This document shows, piece after piece, positions 6,361 to 37,692 of a DNA stretch of 64,000 bases. The stretch is from Natronospirales bacterium (GTDB lineage Bacteria; Pseudomonadota; Gammaproteobacteria; Natronospirales; REEB76): the NCBI GenBank assembly GCA_021792635.1, contig JAJYUH010000001.1, forward strand, positions 280,710-344,709. Direction: 5' to 3'. The translations under genes were made by a program, and so were the position numbers. The notes under the pieces are model-generated. The model was not told the DNA's origin. It did no database searches and saw only the letters and a program-made list of their open reading frames with translations. The first letter of the stretch is position 1, and every line of letters begins with the position of its first letter.

Positions 6361-8102
6361 ACTTCAAGGCCTGTGCCGTCATCCCCGTTTACAACCAGCA
6401 TGCCTGTCTTGTGCAGATTGCCGCGCGCTTGCGTGCCTGCGACCTGGCGTGCATCTTCGTGGACGACGGCAGCAATGCGACCACCAAGACGGTCCTGTCC
6501 AACCTCGCTTGCTCCGGAGCCGGCATGGAATGCCTGACTCTGCCGGGCAACCAGGGCAAGGGTGCCGCGGTGCTCGCCGGGCTTGAGCGCGCCGCCCAGC
6601 GTGGCTACAGCCATGCCTTGCAAGTGGACGCCGACGGCCAGCATGATCTGGACGACGTGCCGGCGCTGCTCAGGCTGGCCGAGACCCATTTTGAAAAACT
6701 CATATCCGGCCTGCCGGTATTCGACAATTCGGCGCCGCGTGTGCGCTTTTACGGGCGCTACCTCACCCATATTCTGGTGTGGATTGAAACCTTGTCGTTG
6801 CGATTGCGGGATTCCATGTGCGGCTTCCGCGTCTATCCACTCGCAGCCACGCTGGCGCTTGCACACAGCGTGAAACTCGGGCGGCGCATGCAATTCGATT
6901 CCGAGGTGATGGTGCGCCTGGACTGGCGCGGTGTGGAAAGCGTGTTCCTGCCCACGCGCGTGCGGTATCCAGCAGACGGTGTCTCCCATTTCCGGTACTT
7001 CACCGACAACCTGCACATGGGCTGGATGCACCTGCGCCTGTTCCTCGGCATGCTGCCGCGTATCCCCATGCTGTTGCGTCGCAAATTTGCACGGCACCGG
7101 GCGCGTCACTGGGCGCAATTGCCTGAGCGCGGCAGCGTATTGGGTATCCGTATCCTCGGCGCGGTGTACGCCCGGTGCGGCCGACGCGCCAGTCACCTGC
7201 TGCTGATGCCCGTGGTCTTTTATTTCCTCATCACCCATCCGCTGGCGCGGCGTGCCTCGCGCCAGTTTCTGACGGCGGTGCAGCCTTATACGCATGCTCT
7301 CGCCACCCGCGACGCGCGTCCCACCTGGCGCAACAGTTTCCGGCACTTCTGGCGCTTCGCCGTCGCCAATCTGGACATGCTGGTGGCTTGGCGCAGGCCG
7401 GGGCAGGTGACGGTGCATTTTCCGGCACGCGATCAACTGGTGACTGCCGTGAACCGCGGCCAGGGGGTGCTGCTCATCAGCGCGCACCTGGGCAATCTGG
7501 AAGTCACGCGCGCGCTGGCTACCCGGGAGCGGGGCCTGAAAGTGAACGCCCTCGTGTACACCCGGCATGCGTACAAATCCAATACGGTGCTGGATGAAGT
7601 GAGCGAGGCTTACAACCTGCGGCTGATCCAGGTGCAGGAACTGGGACCCGATACGGCGGTGATGCTGCGGGAGAAGGTGGCGGCCGGCGAGCTGGTGGCG
7701 ATCGTGGGCGACCGCACGCCGGTGTCCGCCGCGAGCCCGGTGGTGCAAGCGGATTTCCTGGGCCAGCCGGCGCCGTTCGCAGTAGGGCCGTACGTGCTGG
7801 CGCACGTGCTGGAATGCCCGGTATATCTTTTTTTCTGTATCGCCGAAGGCGACGGTTACACTATCCACTTGGAGCCCTTCGCGGAACGCATCCATTTGCC
7901 GCGCCGCGGCAGCGAGGCGGCCCTGCAGGCATGGGCGGGTCGTTACGCCGCCCGCCTGGCGGATTACGCCGCGCGTTTTCCGCTGCAGTGGTACAACTTC
8001 TATGATTTCTGGGCGGACCGTGGTCCGGCTGCAACCCGCCTGCGCGGCATCCACCACTCCAAAATGGATATCCATGGACAAGGCTCGCAAACACTTGCCT
8101 GA
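6357..8102 (+). CDS. fusion protein: family-2 glycosyltransferase (N-terminal) plus LpxL/HtrB-like lipid A-type acyltransferase (C-terminal), ApeJ-like
   Basis: N-terminal 'AVIPVYNQ...IFVDDGSNATT...QVDADGQH' (GT2). C-terminal 'LISAHLGNLEV' (HX4E of lauroyl/myristoyl acyltransferases). 581 aa. Confidence 0.75.
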   Translation: MNFKACAVIPVYNQHACLVQIAARLRACDLACIFVDDGSNATTKTVLSNLACSGAGMECLTLPGNQGKGAAVLAGLERAAQRGYSHALQVDADGQHDLDDVPALLRLAETHFEKLISGLPVFDNSAPRVRFYGRYLTHILVWIETLSLRLRDSMCGFRVYPLAATLALAHSVKLGRRMQFDSEVMVRLDWRGVESVFLPTRVRYPADGVSHFRYFTDNLHMGWMHLRLFLGMLPRIPMLLRRKFARHRARHWAQLPERGSVLGIRILGAVYARCGRRASHLLLMPVVFYFLITHPLARRASRQFLTAVQPYTHALATRDARPTWRNSFRHFWRFAVANLDMLVAWRRPGQVTVHFPARDQLVTAVNRGQGVLLISAHLGNLEVTRALATRERGLKVNALVYTRHAYKSNTVLDEVSEAYNLRLIQVQELGPDTAVMLREKVAAGELVAIVGDRTPVSAASPVVQADFLGQPAPFAVGPYVLAHVLECPVYLFFCIAEGDGYTIHLEPFAERIHLPRRGSEAALQAWAGRYAARLADYAARFPLQWYNFYDFWADRGPAATRLRGIHHSKMDIHGQGSQTLA

Positions 8103-32342: not shown

Positions 32343-33536
32343 ATGAAAACCGATTCCATGACCGGCGCCGAACGCCGCGCCGCCCTCTCGCTTGCGGGCA
32401 TTTTCTCCCTGCGCATGCTGGGGCTGTTCATGATCTACCCGGTGTTCGCGCTGTACGCGCGCACTCTGCCGGACGCCACGCCCTTCACCATCGGACTGGC
32501 GCTGGGCATCTACGGCCTCACCCAGGCGATCCTGCAGATTCCATTCGGCTTCCTCTCCGACCGCTTCGGACGCAAGCGCATCATCGCCATGGGACTGGTG
32601 CTGTTTGCCGCGGGCAGCATGCTGGCGGCGCTTTCCCATTCGATTGACGGCATCATCGCCGGGCGGCTGCTGCAGGGCGCGGGGGCGGTGGGTTCGGCGA
32701 TCCTGGCGCTGGCGGCGGATCTGACGCGCGAGCGGCACCGCACCAAGGCCATGGCCATCATCGGCATGACCATCGGCTTGGCCTTCGCGTTCGCATTGGT
32801 GGCGGGTCCGGTGCTCAATTCCCTCATCGGCGTGTCCGGCATCTTCTGGCTCACGGCGGCACTGGCACTCGCCGGCATCGGCGTACTCTTCGGCCTCGTG
32901 CCCCGTCCGGTGCGCAGCCCGCCGCAGGAAGATGCCGAGGCGGTGCCGGCGCTGTTTCGCCGCGTGCTCAGCGACCGCGAACTGCTGCGCCTGGATTTCG
33001 GTATCTTCGTGCAGCATGCCATCCTTACGGCGAGTTTCCTGAGCGTGCCCCTGGTGCTGCGTGCCGCGGGGGTACAGAGCCATGATCAGTGGTTCGTTTA
33101 TCTGCCGGTGCTGGCGCTCTCGGTGCTGTTCATGGTGCCGTGCATCATCATCGCCGAGCGCGGCGGACGCCTGAAACCGGTGTTTCTGGGCGGTGTGGCC
33201 GCGCTTGCCGCGGCGGAACTGCTGCTGTTTGCCGGCCACGCCCACCTGCCGGTGGTGCTGCTGGCGCTCACGCTGTTTTTCACCGGCTTCAATCTGCTGG
33301 AATCCATGCTGCCTTCGATCATCTCGCGGGTGGCGCCGCCCCACGCCAAAGGCACGGCCCTGGGCGTATATTCCTCCGCGCAGTTCTTCGGCATCTTCGT
33401 CGGCGGCGCGCTGGGGGGCGCAGTGCAGGGGTGGCTGGGGTTTGCCGGCGCGTTTGGCTTTTCGGCGCTGCTCGCAGCGCTCTGGTTGCTGGTAGCGGTT
33501 GCCATGCATTCCCCCCTTCCGCGCACCAGTCACTGA
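32343..33536 (+). CDS. MFS transporter
   Basis: About 12 TM helices. 'LSDRFGRKRII' (MFS loop 2-3 motif). Confidence 0.8.
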   Translation: MKTDSMTGAERRAALSLAGIFSLRMLGLFMIYPVFALYARTLPDATPFTIGLALGIYGLTQAILQIPFGFLSDRFGRKRIIAMGLVLFAAGSMLAALSHSIDGIIAGRLLQGAGAVGSAILALAADLTRERHRTKAMAIIGMTIGLAFAFALVAGPVLNSLIGVSGIFWLTAALALAGIGVLFGLVPRPVRSPPQEDAEAVPALFRRVLSDRELLRLDFGIFVQHAILTASFLSVPLVLRAAGVQSHDQWFVYLPVLALSVLFMVPCIIIAERGGRLKPVFLGGVAALAAAELLLFAGHAHLPVVLLALTLFFTGFNLLESMLPSIISRVAPPHAKGTALGVYSSAQFFGIFVGGALGGAVQGWLGFAGAFGFSALLAALWLLVAVAMHSPLPRTSH

Positions 33537-33658
33537 GCGTTGCCGCAGCGGCGGTCTTCGGGATGGCGATGCTTGCTGCGGGGACTCAGGCACCGTAACC
33601 GGGGCGACCGCTGCCGCCAATGCATAATCAGCCGGATTTTCCGGATATTTTTATTCGA

Positions 33659-33676
33659 GTATCCGGATTATCGTGT
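33659..33676. repeat. left 18-bp inverted repeat flanking the phd-vapC cassette (GTATCCGGATTATCGTGT)
   Basis: Perfect reverse complement of 34409-34426. Embedded in a patch of CCGGAT motifs that includes an 8-bp-stem hairpin (33640-33647 / 33660-33667). Confidence 0.85.
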
Positions 33677-33681
33677 GTTTT

Positions 33682-33730
33682 TGCCGGGTTGCGGACGTTT
33701 CCAATATAGACTAGACTAATTAAACTTAGT
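33682..33730 (+). promoter_or_regulatory. putative phd-vapC promoter plus palindromic operator
   Basis: 'TTGCCG'-17 nt-'ATATAG' sigma70-like spacing, followed by direct 'TAGACTAGAC' and the palindrome ACTAA-N6-TTAGT (33715-33730), just upstream of the antitoxin start. Confidence 0.4.
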
Positions 33731-33746
33731 TTGTATGGGATATGCC

Positions 33747-33986
33747 ATGCACACGGTTAATATGCACGAAGCGAAAACTCAGCTTTCAAAGCTGGTGGAC
33801 AAGGCCGTCAAGGGCGAGCCGTTCATTATCGCCAAGGCAGGTAAGCCTTTGGTGAGGGTCACCGCGCTGGAAACCGCCGTGCGCGCCCAACGGCTCGGGT
33901 TCCTGACTGGAGAAATTGAGGTGCCTGATGACTTCGATCAGATGGGTGCCCAGCCAATTCAAGAGCTGTTCGAGGGCAAACCGTGA
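33747..33986 (+). CDS. Phd/YefM-family antitoxin
   Basis: 'MHTVNMHEAKTQLSKLVDKAVKGEPFIIAKAGKPLVRV' is a canonical Phd/YefM N-terminus. Alternative ATG at 33735. ATGA-type overlap with the toxin gene. Confidence 0.8.
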   Translation: MHTVNMHEAKTQLSKLVDKAVKGEPFIIAKAGKPLVRVTALETAVRAQRLGFLTGEIEVPDDFDQMGAQPIQELFEGKP

Positions 33987-34369
33987 AGCTGTTGCTGGAT
34001 ACGCACGTCCTGTTGTGGGCGGTCGGACAGCCCGAAAAACTGTCATCAGGGGCACGCAAACTGATCGAGAGTCGGCGCAATGAGCTGTTTTTCAGCGTCG
34101 CCAATCTGTGGGAAGTGGCGATCAAACACGATTTGAGACGGAAGGATTTCCGCGTGGACCCGAGATTATTGCGCCGTGGATTGCTGGACAATGGCTATGG
34201 GGAGCTACCCATTACCAGCGAGCACGCCGTGGCGGTAGATGGTTTGCCGCCCATCCACAAGGATCCATTTGATCGTCTATTGGTGGCGCAGGCAATGGTT
34301 GAAGGCATCACCCTGCTCACTGTTGATCGGCAAGTTGCAAAGTACCCCGGCCCGATTCGCCAAGTGTGA
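33983..34369 (+). CDS. vapC: PIN-domain toxin, VapC family
   Basis: 128 aa. 'LLDTHVLLW' (first acidic PIN residue), 'SVANLWEVAIK', 'DPFDRLLVAQA' (conserved Asp). Confidence 0.85.
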   Translation: MKLLLDTHVLLWAVGQPEKLSSGARKLIESRRNELFFSVANLWEVAIKHDLRRKDFRVDPRLLRRGLLDNGYGELPITSEHAVAVDGLPPIHKDPFDRLLVAQAMVEGITLLTVDRQVAKYPGPIRQV

Positions 34370-34408
34370 GCGTTACAGAACTTCCCATATCCCGGATGAA
34401 CTGAAACA

Positions 34409-34426
34409 ACACGATAATCCGGATAC
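34409..34426. repeat. right 18-bp inverted repeat flanking the phd-vapC cassette (ACACGATAATCCGGATAC)
   Basis: Perfect reverse complement of 33659-33676, 40 nt after the vapC stop. Confidence 0.85.
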
Positions 34427-34522
34427 CTTTATTCAAAAACCGGTCATACAGCATGCCGGCAATCCGTGCGGAGGCGCGGACGAAACCGCCGGCTTCCCGG
34501 CGGCACGCTCAGAGGTTCACGC

Positions 34523-35206
34523 TTGAAACGGCATGGCATCAGGGTGTTTCGGGCGGCGACTGCGGCTGCGGTTCTTGGCATCGCGTGCGGCGTGCTGCCG
34601 GTGCCGGGGTGCACGACCCTTAATCCCGGCAGTGGTCCCGCAGTGTACCGGCGCAGCGCGGGCTTGGCGCGCGCAATCTCCGGCGAGCCCCTCTGGGTTT
34701 TCGATGCCGGGTGGCACACGGGATTGGTGCTGTCGCGAGCCGAGATGGGGCCATCGCTTGCCGCGCTGTTGCGACGCTCGCCCCGGGCGCGCTACTTCGT
34801 ATGGGGTTGGGGTAACCGCCGGTACTACATGGCCGCCCGGCCGACGAGTGCCATGGGACTGGCCGCACTTTTTCCCTCCCGCAGCGTGGTATTGGTCCAG
34901 GCCTGTCGTCACAAACCGCCGCTGTGCTTCTCCCAGGGAGTACGCCTGCGCGCCATGACTGTTTCCCGCGGCGGCATAGTCCGTCTGGACGACTACCTGG
35001 TGCACTCTTTGCAGAACGGCGCACACGCAGACCTGCAGCCCGTTGCACCCGGTCCGTATCCCCACAGCGAATTCTTTGCCTCCGGGCTGTCCTATGACGC
35101 GTTTCACACCTGCAACACCTGGACCGCCGAGGCCCTCCGGGCAGCCGGTCTCCCGGTTTCCTCCGGCGGGGTCGTTTTTGCCGGTCAAGTGTGGCGCCAG
35201 CTATAG
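34523..35206 (+). CDS. DUF2459/TIGR02117-like putative lipoprotein
   Basis: 'GWHTGLVL', 'WGWGNRRYY' and 'HTCNTWTAEALRAAGLPV' blocks recalled from this family. TTG 34523 has an AGAGG 8 nt upstream; the track start is 34466. Confidence 0.5.
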   Translation: MKRHGIRVFRAATAAAVLGIACGVLPVPGCTTLNPGSGPAVYRRSAGLARAISGEPLWVFDAGWHTGLVLSRAEMGPSLAALLRRSPRARYFVWGWGNRRYYMAARPTSAMGLAALFPSRSVVLVQACRHKPPLCFSQGVRLRAMTVSRGGIVRLDDYLVHSLQNGAHADLQPVAPGPYPHSEFFASGLSYDAFHTCNTWTAEALRAAGLPVSSGGVVFAGQVWRQL

Positions 35207-35381
35207 ACGAAATTTCCGGGATACAGCGCCGTGCTCTGCGGAGGCCCCTGCCCCCGGGAAAAACCTGGCATTTCCCGCCGGTAGGGGTGATCCCCAGTGA
35301 CCCCGGCGGCATGTGCCCTTACAATGACCAACTCCCACCGGGGACCGGGCGGGATCCACCCTGAACACAGAGGACCGGCAC

Positions 35382-35870
35382 ATGGCACGCGGCGTCAACA
35401 AAGTCATTCTCATCGGTAACCTGGGCGCGGACCCGGAAGTGCGTTACATGCCGAGCGGCGGCGCGGTTGCCAACATCCGCATCGCCACCAGCGAATCCTG
35501 GAAGGACAAGGAAAGCGGCGAGCAGAAAGAGCGCACCGAATGGCACCGCATCACCTTCTACGGCCGACTGGCGGAAATCGCCGGCGAATACCTGAAGAAG
35601 GGCTCGCAGGTCTATATAGAAGGCCGGCTGCGCACCCGCACCTACGAGAAGGAGGGCCAGACCCACTATTCCACCGAGATCATCGCCGACAACATGCAGA
35701 TGCTGGGCTCGCGTGCCGGTGCCGGCGGGGTGGACCGCGTCAGCGCGGCGGACGACCCCAGGAAGTCCCCGCCGGGGGAAAGCCGCGGCGAACCCGAAAC
35801 GGTCGCCGCTCCGGCCTCCAATCCGGCCAAGACAGGCGGCGATTTCAACGACGACGATATACCGTTCTAG
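35382..35870 (+). CDS. ssb: single-stranded DNA-binding protein
   Basis: '[43 protein letters not shown]' OB-fold N-terminus, Gly/Pro-rich linker, acidic tip 'DDDIPF'. Confidence 0.95.
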
Positions 35871-35931: not shown

Positions 35932-36364
35932 GCTTGTTAACACTCCGGGCGCCATCGAGCAGGGTTCCCGGCAAGTGGATACCTGAATTATTTTGACAAC
36001 AACTGGGGAGACACCGGCGGTCGGTTTGGGTGAAAACAGCAACCGTGGGGTTCTCGCCGCCCTCATCCCATGAAGCGTTGTCCTCTCAATACCTCCGTAA
36101 GACGTTCCTTATGCAGTATTCCCCGGACCCCCACTCCGCCCAACAGTGGGTTTGGGTAGCGTCCCGACACAGGAACGTGCGCTCGGCATGCCCCCAGTCC
36201 CGCTGCCGCTGGACGATATAAACCGGCCCGGAAGCGGGGATGCGTGCGTTGCTGCCGAGCAGAAACACGAAGGTCCACTGGCACCACGTGCGCTGCTCCC
36301 CAGCACCTTGCGGGCATTATTCGTGCGAAGGAGTGCGTGGAGTGATGGTGCCAGAGGGTTTGGC

Positions 36365-36408
36365 TTTCTAATACCCAAATTGGGGTATATAATCCCCAAA
36401 ATGGGTAT
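36365..36408 (+). promoter_or_regulatory. putative promoter with two near-palindromic operators for the NTase/HEPN-like operon
   Basis: Perfect TATAAT at 36388-36393, with weak -35 'TTTCTA' 17 nt upstream. ATACCCAAATTGGGGTAT (36371-36388) fills the spacer. A second related site, ATCCCCAAAATGGGTAT (36392-36408), overlaps the first ATG. Confidence 0.45.
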
Positions 36409-37030
36409 TAAGAATCAACCAATGACTGTCGCTGCGCAAACCCGTTCCGGGATTGCAGACGCCCTGTTTACCAAGGTGCAACAGCGAGTACTGGCTATCG
36501 TATATGGGAACTCCGGTAGGTCTTTTTATGCGAACGAGATTATTGCCCTCGCAGGTTCCGGTACGGGTGCGGTCCAGAGGGAATTGGGCCGTCTTGAGGC
36601 GGCAGGTCTCGTTATTCTTACGCGCATCGGTAACCAGAAGCACTACCAGGCTAATGCGTTGGCACCGGTGTTTGTGGAATTGCGCGGCCTAGTCCTGAAA
36701 ACTTGCGGTCTGGTGGATATTTTACGCGCAGCACTGGCACCGCTAGCCGGTCAAATCATCACCGCATTCGTTTATGGCTCGGTCGCTAAGGGCGAGGATA
36801 CAGCGAAAAGTGACATCGATCTGATGGTGCTAAGCCATACGCTGTCGTACGCTGACTTATATGCTGTTCTGGAAGGGGCGACGAATCAGCTAGGGCGGAC
36901 TGCCAACCCGACCTTGTATAAGCCCCAGGAACTCGAAAAACGTGTTAAAGAGGGCAACGCCTTCATCCAGCGAGTCCTGGCACAACCGAAACTTTGGTTG
37001 ATGGGAGACGAACATGAGCTCGCCGTTTGA
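36401..37030 (+). CDS. winged-helix DNA-binding domain fused to a pol-beta-type nucleotidyltransferase (MNT-like)
   Basis: N-terminal 'ANEIIALAGSGTGAVQRELGRLEAAGLV' (wHTH) and C-terminal 'YGSVAKGEDTAKSDIDLMVL' (GS-x9-13-DxD NTase motif). Alternative start 36422; the track start 36146 is rejected. Confidence 0.7.
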   Translation: MGIKNQPMTVAAQTRSGIADALFTKVQQRVLAIVYGNSGRSFYANEIIALAGSGTGAVQRELGRLEAAGLVILTRIGNQKHYQANALAPVFVELRGLVLKTCGLVDILRAALAPLAGQIITAFVYGSVAKGEDTAKSDIDLMVLSHTLSYADLYAVLEGATNQLGRTANPTLYKPQELEKRVKEGNAFIQRVLAQPKLWLMGDEHELAV

Positions 37031-37436
37031 AAACCTAAGTGGACCCGGCAAACCCCTGCGCAAAGAGGCCGCTGATGCAAAAGAATTCCAAGGGCTAAAG
37101 CGTTCCGGTCTCGCGCGCTTACCCGATGCGGCGAATCCCGCCAATTCACTGGAAAGCCGATTTGATCTTGCCTACAACGCGGCGCATGCATTGTGTTTGG
37201 CGGCGTTACGTTGGCATGGCTATCGGCCTGAGCATCGGTATATTGTTTTTCAAGTGCTTCCCCATACGCTTGGGTTGGGGCCGGAGGTGTGGCGCGTCCT
37301 GGATAAATGCCACAACATCCGCAATCAGGGAGAGTATGAGGGCGACCTGAATGTGGACGATCAACTTGTCACAGACCTGATCGGCGCCTGCCGTGCAGTA
37401 GCAACTAAGGTGAATGCTCTTAAACCTCCAGGGTGA
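37014..37436 (+). CDS. small alpha-helical HEPN-like partner protein (putative toxin)
   Basis: 140 aa, 17-nt overlap with the NTase gene. Predicted helical bundle. 'CHNIRNQGEYEG' sits where DUF86-type HEPN proteins carry RNxxxHxY, and the canonical His is not evident. Confidence 0.45.
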   Translation: MSSPFENLSGPGKPLRKEAADAKEFQGLKRSGLARLPDAANPANSLESRFDLAYNAAHALCLAALRWHGYRPEHRYIVFQVLPHTLGLGPEVWRVLDKCHNIRNQGEYEGDLNVDDQLVTDLIGACRAVATKVNALKPPG

Positions 37437-37449
37437 AGCATTTCGTTCG

Positions 37450-37578
37450 ATGGCAACGAAGAGACCAGCAATGAAACACGGGAAAGCCAAGATCACTTTG
37501 GACGAACTGCTTGACCAAAGTATTCCCAATAGGCGCCACGATCGGGTTGACGTAGGCTCGGTAAACCCGGGCGCTTGA
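37450..37578 (+). pseudogene. C-terminal remnant of an AbrB/MazE/PemI-type antitoxin
   Basis: 'KITLDELLDQSIPNRRHDRVDVGSVNPGA*' parallels the MazE/PemI C-terminus ('[24 protein letters not shown]'). No swapped-hairpin N-terminal domain is present. Confidence 0.35.
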
Positions 37579-37692
37579 GAGAAAATTTGAGCGGCTTTTG
37601 GTCGCGCCGCATAGACGACACCCATCGCCTGGTCTAATAGGGTCGAGGGCGATGCGGTCGCCGTCATCGCCTGCCGTTACCACTATGACTAG
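37551..37692 (+). pseudogene. yoeB: 5'-truncated, frameshifted yoeB/txe-family toxin remnant
   Basis: '[25 protein letters not shown]' then, in the +1 frame, 'NRVEGDAVAVIACRYHYD*'. Compare E. coli YoeB '[30 protein letters not shown]...IAACRYHY'. Removing one A from 'TAATAGG' (about 37635-37638) restores 'LVYRVEGD'. Confidence 0.7.

Follow-up and report, generated by a model that had tools for sequence, protein, structure and literature searches.

Mobile insertion cassettes (MICs), such as the IS231-derived MIC231 and the Tn3-derived MICs and Tn3-derived inverted-repeat miniature elements (TIMEs), carry passenger genes without a transposase between repeats of insertion sequence (IS) type, have target duplications on either side, and presumably rely on mobilisation in trans (PMC4133298, PMC7157771). 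Within the ISL3 family, the elements ISPst2, ISPpu12 and IS1396 have terminal repeats GGGTATCCGGAATTTCTGGTTGAT and GGGTATACGGATTTAATGGTTGAT and AT-rich direct repeats of 8 bp, for example TTTTTAAA (PMC6305408 Table 3; bioRxiv 10.1101/452334), and ISL3 members are among the IS families with circular intermediates, presumably transposing by copy-out-paste-in (bioRxiv 10.1101/2023.06.07.543989). Tn3-family transposons carry toxin-antitoxin (TA) pairs, which have been proposed to stabilise the transposon (Lima-Mendez et al. 2020, PMC7157771). Here we analyse a 64,000-nt stretch of a Natronospirales genome (GCA_021792635.1, contig JAJYUH010000001.1, positions 280,710 to 344,709; hereafter the window), whose positions 33657-34427 are, with a probability that we put at about 0.9, a non-autonomous ISL3 derivative of the MIC kind, in which two ~24-bp ends enclose a phd-vapC operon in place of the transposase.

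The unit resembles ISPst2, ISPpu12 and IS1396 in ends that begin GGGTATCCGGA, in AT-rich duplications (8 bp in sibling and related units, 7 nt in the window), in carrying passenger genes and in a G+C content (GC) below that of the host. Those elements, however, are autonomous (tnpA, with tnpR in addition in ISPpu12) and 3.0-3.4 kb long, and passengers in their clade comprise either a permease together with an ArsR-type regulator or a metal antiporter together with lspA, whereas the window unit spans 0.77 kb, has no transposase and carries a TA pair only. The Tn3-derived MICs have 38-bp repeats and 5-6-bp duplications (PMC4133298), as against the ~24-bp repeats and 8-bp duplications of the ISL3 parent of the window unit, and the cargo of the latter is exclusively a TA operon, unlike that of the MICs compared. 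In Tn3-family transposons the TA pair adjoins tnpA, tnpR and res within a large autonomous element bounded by 38-bp repeats, whereas here it makes up the whole minimal unit; TnAmu2 (NC_015188.1; H7/L082) carries a PIN-Phd pair of the same TA family, 68.5% identical in nucleotide sequence to the window pair, with no ISL3 repeats flanking it. Acinetobacter pdif modules and integron cassettes are likewise small TA-bearing modules that lie between inverted sites without a mobility enzyme of their own; they move through XerCD or IntI at conserved sites and leave no target duplication. The window-type unit differs from both in its variable 8-bp duplications and transposase-type ends. The pdif modules are mentioned in PMC10132070.

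Repeats and cargo of the unit

The inverted repeat of the unit consists of GTATCCGGATTATCGTGT (33659-33676) and, on the other side at 34409-34426, the exact reverse complement. A first-pass annotation, made from the sequence alone, had reported this pair as an 18-bp perfect inverted repeat, which we recovered exactly at both positions; none of 100 dinucleotide-preserving shuffles contained any match, ruling out a chance origin, and no further copy occurs in the window with up to three mismatches allowed. Longer arms of 23 nt (33659-33681 and 34404-34426) are still 91% complementary. Open reading frame (ORF) and Pfam analyses agree with the annotation that the bracketed 768 bp hold only phd, vapC and ~65 bp of upstream DNA. 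GC within the unit runs from 0.46 to 0.59, compared to 0.63-0.71 in the flanking MFS and DUF2459 genes, and the whole-unit value of 0.535 lies below the 0.63-0.64 of the 2-kb flanks, which we counted for a foreign origin.

The GTG start of vapC overlaps the phd stop by 4 nt, and the two genes are, by their predicted domains, a type II TA pair of the Phd/YefM-VapC(PIN) kind in operon arrangement. Upstream of phd, the palindrome ACTAA(N6)TTAGT at 33715-33730 is a candidate Phd/VapC operator, and a similar ACTAA...TTAGT motif precedes the TA homologues at L080 and L081; a simple promoter scan of this upstream region gave no sigma-70 consensus. Just inside the left repeat, GCCGGGTTGCG (33683-33693) is common to the window and a homologous TA pair, one without ISL3 ends, on a Methylobacter plasmid, and TA-derived DNA therefore begins directly inside this repeat.

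The annotation had further described clusters of a palindromic core, three copies on the left and two on the right, each able to fold into a hairpin. Exact ATCCGGAT occurs once per side, the other "copies" being degenerate (GCCGGATT, TTCCGGATA, ATCCCGGAT); the left hairpin is weak (-7.1 kcal/mol, z -2.2), and shuffled sequence folds as well as the right one (-3.9 kcal/mol, z -0.9). On these grounds core clusters and hairpins were rejected as features of the element. Separately, the 8-mer TCCGGATA occurs eight times in the window against 1.15 expected from shuffles (23717, 33640, 33660, 34418, 54611, 55322, 55375 and 60507). The five sites beyond the cassette region score 10-13/20 against an ISL3 end and are not end-like, and neither the repeat search nor this scoring of TCCGGATA sites revealed other ISL3-like ends in the window.

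Sister copies and target-site duplications

VapC homologues 93, 91 and 88% identical to the window protein (P0001, P0003, P0005) lie in three unrelated contexts: beside a suhB-like inositol-phosphatase/SpoU/IscS cluster (L022-24), between DjlA and CopD (L015-17), and between an rpoA-side terminator and a CitMHS transporter (L018-21). Comparison of window positions 33400-34600 with these contexts by blastn aligned 33659-34427 (92.6%), 33646-34433 (90%) and 33641-34424 (87%), indicating that homology of the unit stops at the repeats in all three. The ends follow the consensus GGGTATCCGGATTA(G/T)CGTGTGTTTT ... AACACG(C/A)TAATCCGGATACCC.

Target-site duplications were scored on the 8 bp outside the termini GGGTATCC...GGATACCC. 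Perfect 8/8 direct repeats flank two of the sister copies (L022, AATGTTTG; L015, TTTTTAAT) and the third has 7/8 (L018); units with other contents, described below, score 8/8 at L035/L047, L054, L059, L064, L074, L027+L032 (GATTTTTA) and L085 (CTTTTTTT), and 7/8 at L046. The duplicated 8-mers are AT-rich and different at each site, a signature of staggered-cut transposition rather than of a recombinase core. Counting the window, the phd-vapC unit occupies four insertion sites, which supports movement as one piece. The first-pass annotation had read it as a small non-autonomous mobile TA cassette, and that part of its reading is borne out by repeat-bounded copies of close TA relatives in three unrelated contexts and by 8-bp duplications outside the repeats of these siblings, the window itself having 7 nt.

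In a wider search, 7994 of 8000 scored candidates matched VapC at E<=1e-20, and among the 120 matches listed identities were 72-93%. The exact VapC protein was found only at the present locus, in metagenome contigs and metagenome-assembled genomes (MAGs; L001-L010). TA homologues in the plasmid collection are 60-70% identical only, and those at L080-L082, including TnAmu2, have no ISL3-type repeats. Because these more distant plasmid homologues lack ISL3 ends, we conclude that the association with such ends is specific to a TA subclade at least 87% identical.

The same ends on ISL3 elements

Scanning one-genome-per-species, metagenome and viral contigs with the terminus GGTATCCGGATTANCGTGT gave matches in 21, 27 and 2 stretches, respectively. 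A few are coding coincidences (for example inside rpsC), and most lie at a sharp boundary after AT-rich DNA; hosts include Bacillota, Pelotomaculum, Natronospirales, Nitrospiraceae, Bradyrhizobium, Acidovorax and gammaproteobacterial MAGs. Units with both ends present are 0.7-2.2 kb long and have matching 8-bp duplications. The repeat picked out by the first-pass annotation thus recurs in many phyla, as the terminus of ISL3-family IS and of other small cassettes.

Termini of the form GGGTATCCGGATTA.CGTGT bound elements of 2106 bp (L064), 2184 bp (L054/L073) and 1801 bp (L074), whose proteins have DDE_Tnp_ISL3, HTH_Tnp_ISL3 and Zn_ribbon_ISL3 domains (E 1e-53 to 1e-61). The window-type unit and these transposase-bearing elements have 19-20 nt of their termini in common, and the L064 terminus, GGGTATCCGGATTATCGTGTTGAT, is identical at 20 of 24 positions to the published ISPst2 left repeat. 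The shared termini and the likeness to ISPst2 together identify the window repeats as ISL3-family IS ends. The transposases of L064, L054 and L074 are mutually 37-43% identical; two ISL3 elements from plasmids (H31, H34) have diverged ends.

An 872-bp unit at L059 (7224-8095), with perfect duplications (GTTATATT), derives from the 2184-bp autonomous element (L054 10970-13153) through internal deletion. Fragments of the transposase and small Zn-ribbon ORFs are still present in it, and it provides a snapshot of how non-autonomous derivatives originate. Single-match termini were seen at L025 5394, L036 2211, L045 5978, L026, L038-L041, L050, L051, L065 and L067. For 16 solo termini no convincing partner end was found within 7 kb; three solo ends from Bacillota/Alicyclobacillus have ~50 nt of internal sequence in common and lie beside housekeeping genes. 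Such solo ISL3 ends may be remnants, one-ended structures or something else.

Other cargo and a filled/empty pair

Loci L085 and L018 are 98-99% identical in DNA over their shared flanks, with CitMHS proteins 97% identical. Both carry the phd-vapC unit, and L085 has in addition a second unit of 1353 bp (6584-7936 in native coordinates), bounded by GGGTATCCGGATTTTAGTGTTG and GGGTATCCGGATTTCCGTGTTG and flanked by a perfect CTTTTTTT duplication, which encodes an AbiEii toxin (Pfam E 2e-14) and a 92-aa ORF. L018 (4662-4675) and L019 represent the precise empty site of this unit (gcccggCTTTTTTTattGGGG...), and L020 (1-145) is filled as well. The contrast between filled L085 and empty L018 is direct evidence that members of the cassette class have transposed recently. 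The AbiEii unit lies 3 bp from the phd-vapC unit, in a terminator T-run, as a tandem insertion, which suggests that terminator T-runs, or pre-existing ends, attract such elements.

Further TA families occur on the same ends: HigB with a helix-turn-helix antitoxin in 815 bp (L048) and YafQ with RelB as sole cargo in 699 bp (L027+L032). Because at least three other TA families are carried as sole cargo, ISL3 derivatives without a transposase seem to favour TA pairs as passengers. Other units carry a UDG-like gene (L035/L047) or an ATPase_2/DUF234 gene (L042/L052), and at L041 one exact end adjoins a HepT-MNT pair, with no partner end found.

A 1.25-kb unit with these ends recurs at L046 (12810-14065), L057, L071 and L033+L028 and contains two divergent ORFs (283 and 169 aa) for which neither Pfam nor PADLOC gave a match; it could be an uncharacterised toxin-antitoxin-like pair. 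On the Pseudomonas putida plasmid pKF715A (L079 2064-4389), an AbiEii/AbiGii toxin-family gene lies directly 5' of an annotated ISL3-family transposase gene, a hint that autonomous ISL3 elements may carry modules of AbiE type as well.

The MFS-ssb interval

The unit and its neighbours are listed in Table 1. Pfam assignments confirm the annotated content of the interval between the MFS gene and ssb, namely the cassette and a DUF2459-like gene. The terminator-like stem-loop lies directly after the MFS stop codon, one of the annotated left "cores" being its stem, and we take this stem-loop and T-run region to be the AT-rich target that received the cassette; the sibling insertions at L018 and L085 are likewise in terminator T-runs.

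Table 1. Features of the phd-vapC unit and its surroundings (window coordinates)
Feature	Position	Strand	Basis or remark
MFS transporter gene, left host flank	32343..33536	+	Pfam MFS_1, E 1.5e-53
Terminator-like stem-loop CCGGATTTTCCGG with T-run ATATTTTTAT	33632..33654	+	terminator scan; fold -4.5 kcal/mol
Left direct repeat TTTATTC	33650..33656	.	remnant of 8-bp target-site duplication
Left terminal inverted repeat GAGTATCCGGATTATCGTGTGTTTT	33657..33681	+	putative ISL3-family transposase binding and cleavage end
Upstream region of TA operon	33682..33746	+	with small palindrome
phd, Phd/YefM antitoxin, 79 aa	33747..33986	+	Pfam PF02604, E 2.5e-10; gene call on identical contigs
vapC, PIN-domain toxin, 128 aa	33983..34369	+	Pfam PF01850, E 3e-14
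Right terminal inverted repeat	34404..34427	-	+ strand sequence AAACAACACGATAATCCGGATACC
Right direct repeat TTTATTC	34428..34434	.	flanking copy
DUF2459 gene, outside cassette	34523..35206	+	Pfam PF09601, E 7e-26
ssb, ancestral right neighbour of MFS gene	35382..35870	+	Pfam SSB, E 2e-40

In the closest relatives found (L076 and L077, MFS 82% identical at the amino-acid level), uvrA is divergent from the MFS gene. The uvrA-MFS-ssb adjacency proposed by the first-pass annotation holds in L077, where ssb follows the MFS gene after 181 bp, and also in L076, where the next gene leaves the contig and has no Pfam call and its DNA aligns to the window ssb (86.7%, 450 bp). The DNA of both relatives aligns to the window up to 33507 and resumes from 35297, with the cassette and DUF2459 both absent, and at least two differences accordingly separate the MFS gene from ssb in the window lineage. 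DUF2459 has a host-like GC yet is missing in these two relatives, and we regard it as a separate difference from them, not as part of the cassette.

Three further observations concern this neighbourhood. The left flank at 33626-33656 (AATCAGCCGGATTTTCCGGATATTTTTATTC) aligns in direct orientation, at 74% identity, with the right end and its flank (34404-34434) and resembles the place in L085 where two cassettes adjoin; it could represent the decayed remains of a solo right end, an attracting inverted-repeat-like sequence, or simply the MFS terminator. A strain variant, L075, is 98.4% identical to the window upstream, with identical cassette junctions, and carries an extra mazE/pemK(mazF) cassette of ~0.8 kb (7177-8014) between DUF2459 and ssb. 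Its 29-nt inverted repeats are 97% complementary, with termini GGCTATTTGCAAAAGGTGGTTG that resemble classic ISL3 ends such as those of ISArsp7 (GGCTCTTCGC...GGTGGTG). Window positions 35209-35216 are the exact empty site of this cassette, the target GAAATTTC being duplicated 6/8 in L075, and identity between L075 and the window falls from 98% to 88% at the insertion point; a viral-contig scan for the mazEF repeat gave one coding chance match only. Finally, 3' of ssb (36146-37436), a nucleotidyltransferase and HEPN-like pair corresponds to PDC-M05A/B, a candidate defence system of PADLOC (E 5e-80, 8e-62), in a low-GC stretch at ~36300-37600. Since this pair is missing in L075, where Wzz directly follows ssb, and is replaced by a different nucleotidyltransferase in L012, we consider it a further variable cassette; a search around it gave no convincing bounding repeats, of ISL3 type or otherwise.

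Discussion

With phd-vapC replacing the transposase between ISL3 ends, the unit has the make-up of a MIC, namely passenger genes without a transposase between repeats, together with evidence of movement as one piece. This term fits better than MITE (miniature inverted-repeat transposable element), since the unit contains genes, measures 0.77 kb and has one copy in the window: MITEs are small (<~300-500 bp), non-coding and multicopy, as against 771 bp, two intact genes and one copy here. The first-pass annotation had called its mobile cassette "MITE-like or recombination-site-bounded", and neither qualifier survives, the latter in view of the variable 8-bp duplications and ISL3 ends. A Tn3-type element was rejected as well, given ~24-bp repeats beginning GGGTATCC and 8-bp duplications instead of ~38-bp GGGG... 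repeats and 5-bp duplications.

By analogy with the family, the cassette would depend in trans on the ISL3 DDE transposase of some autonomous relative, which would bind both cassette ends and excise or copy the unit; the unit would then integrate into an AT-rich 8-bp target, often a terminator T-run, and duplicate those 8 bp. ISL3 elements are reported to form circles in which the two ends abut. The TA cargo may let a unit without a transposase persist, as the stable PIN toxin would escape its labile antitoxin once the DNA is lost, and this would account for the repeated occurrence of TA pairs as sole cargo on ISL3-type ends. The window copy went in downstream of the MFS gene's terminator-like hairpin, in the interval that ancestrally joined this gene to ssb.

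Several observations weigh against reading the window unit as a transposed ISL3 cassette. Its duplication is imperfect, reduced to 7 nt by the loss of one T and with a register that falls two bases short of the canonical one (best registers 7/8, TTTATTCG and TTTATTCA), and its terminal bases deviate from canonical ISL3-type ends: the left end, GAGTATCC, has A at position 2 of the canonical start GGGTATCC (GAG for GGG), and the right end keeps, after GGATAC, just one of the two canonical terminal C residues. No ISL3 transposase was matched by tblastn in the 64-kb window, consistent with the absence of a transposase noted in the first-pass annotation. Exact-protein look-ups with VapC, SSB, MFS and DUF2459 found no empty MFS-DUF2459 site for the window copy, and the unit is present in every contig with an identical MFS or DUF2459 protein. 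The MFS-ssb interval of relatives does lack the insert, as the annotation led one to expect, but the relatives with an 82% identical MFS protein also lack DUF2459, and the boundary cannot be read there at the nucleotide level. Elsewhere, many genomes have exact termini as solo ends, for which 6 kb of neighbouring DNA contains no partner. Transposition of TA-only ISL3 cassettes is, moreover, a reading from sequences, and the stabilising role of the TA pair is putative. The window copy is probably old, fixed and immobilised, persisting as a chromosomal TA locus, given its eroded termini, the lack of an ISL3 transposase in 64 kb and its presence, in identical form, in every contig of the lineage.

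We consider it very unlikely that the repeats are instead solo remnants of two separate ISL3 insertions around a pre-existing TA pair, that is, a decayed compound transposon. Solo ISL3 ends are common, the window duplication is imperfect, and some such two-insertion process must have made the first cassette; yet the unit recurs at four loci with identical internal junctions between repeat and TA pair, and matching 8-bp duplications span all of it (perfectly at L022 and L015), which requires movement as one piece after formation. A slightly smaller chance attaches to the repeats being sites for a site-specific recombinase supplied in trans (Xer/pdif, integron attC or lox-like), with the cassette moving by recombination. 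Such sites are suggested by a right-end-like sequence just 5' of the left end in the window and at L020/L085, which creates a large imperfect palindrome with a T-rich spacer and the look of a core site, and neither recombinase nor transposase lies inside the unit. A recombinase overlap would be constant, however, whereas the flanking 8-bp repeats vary by site (AATGTTTG, TTTTTAAT, GATTTTTA, CTTTTTTT and others), and the sites share no constant core and contain no dif-like or attC-like sequence. Identical termini bound elements with ISL3 DDE transposases, and the L085 palindrome is explained by two adjacent independent insertions, L018 being the empty site for one of them.

Least probable of all is that the repeats are operators of the TA operon or insulating terminators, unrelated to mobility. 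TA operons do autoregulate through palindromic operators, the left repeat lies ~70 bp 5' of phd and the right ~35 bp 3' of vapC, and a weak left hairpin is possible. Against this, the right hairpin is matched by shuffled sequence, 19-mer termini flank unrelated cargo (transposases, the UDG-like gene and other TA families), and the plasmid TA homologues (65-70% identical in nucleotides; L080-L082, TnAmu2 included) have no such repeats, even as L080 and L081 keep the ACTAA...TTAGT-like motif.

With the window unit read as an ISL3-derived MIC, what is already known comprises MICs as such, passenger genes on ISL3 elements, and TA pairs as passengers on Tn3 transposons. The literature, searched with incomplete coverage by keyword and by sequence substring, gave no description of ISL3-derived TA-only cassettes, and the substring search for the repeat matched only the ISPst2-type left repeat. 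Cargo on GGGTATCCGGATT-type ends includes PIN-Phd, HigBA, YafQ-RelB and AbiEii, with the MazEF cassette on different, ISL3-like repeats. We tentatively propose, at somewhat less than even odds, that ISL3-type ends are a widespread and undescribed vehicle that packages bare TA operons of several families into minimal transposase-less cassettes. Held just as provisionally is the further suggestion that such cassettes insert in terminator T-runs, sometimes in tandem, across several phyla, with the TA pair as their own addiction module substituting for self-encoded mobility. The apparent preference for TA pairs fits a proposal made earlier for Tn3 transposons, in which mobile DNA is stabilised by the TA modules it carries, and short GGGTATCCGGATT-type repeats around small operons mark ISL3 cassettes that transposase-based IS finders miss.

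For the present genome, the cassette explains the separation of MFS and ssb, and the surroundings of ssb stand out as a hotspot where small TA and defence cassettes occur. Chromosomal TA loci are patchy between close strains, and the physical vehicle of a bare TA operon is rarely identified; here it can be read from the ISL3 ends, the 8-bp duplications, the transposase-bearing relatives and the filled/empty pair. If ISL3-type ends are indeed such a vehicle, they would provide a concrete mechanism for the hopping of chromosomal TA loci within and between genomes, and TA-only ISL3 cassettes may prove to be a general route by which TA pairs move, one that has been under-recognised.

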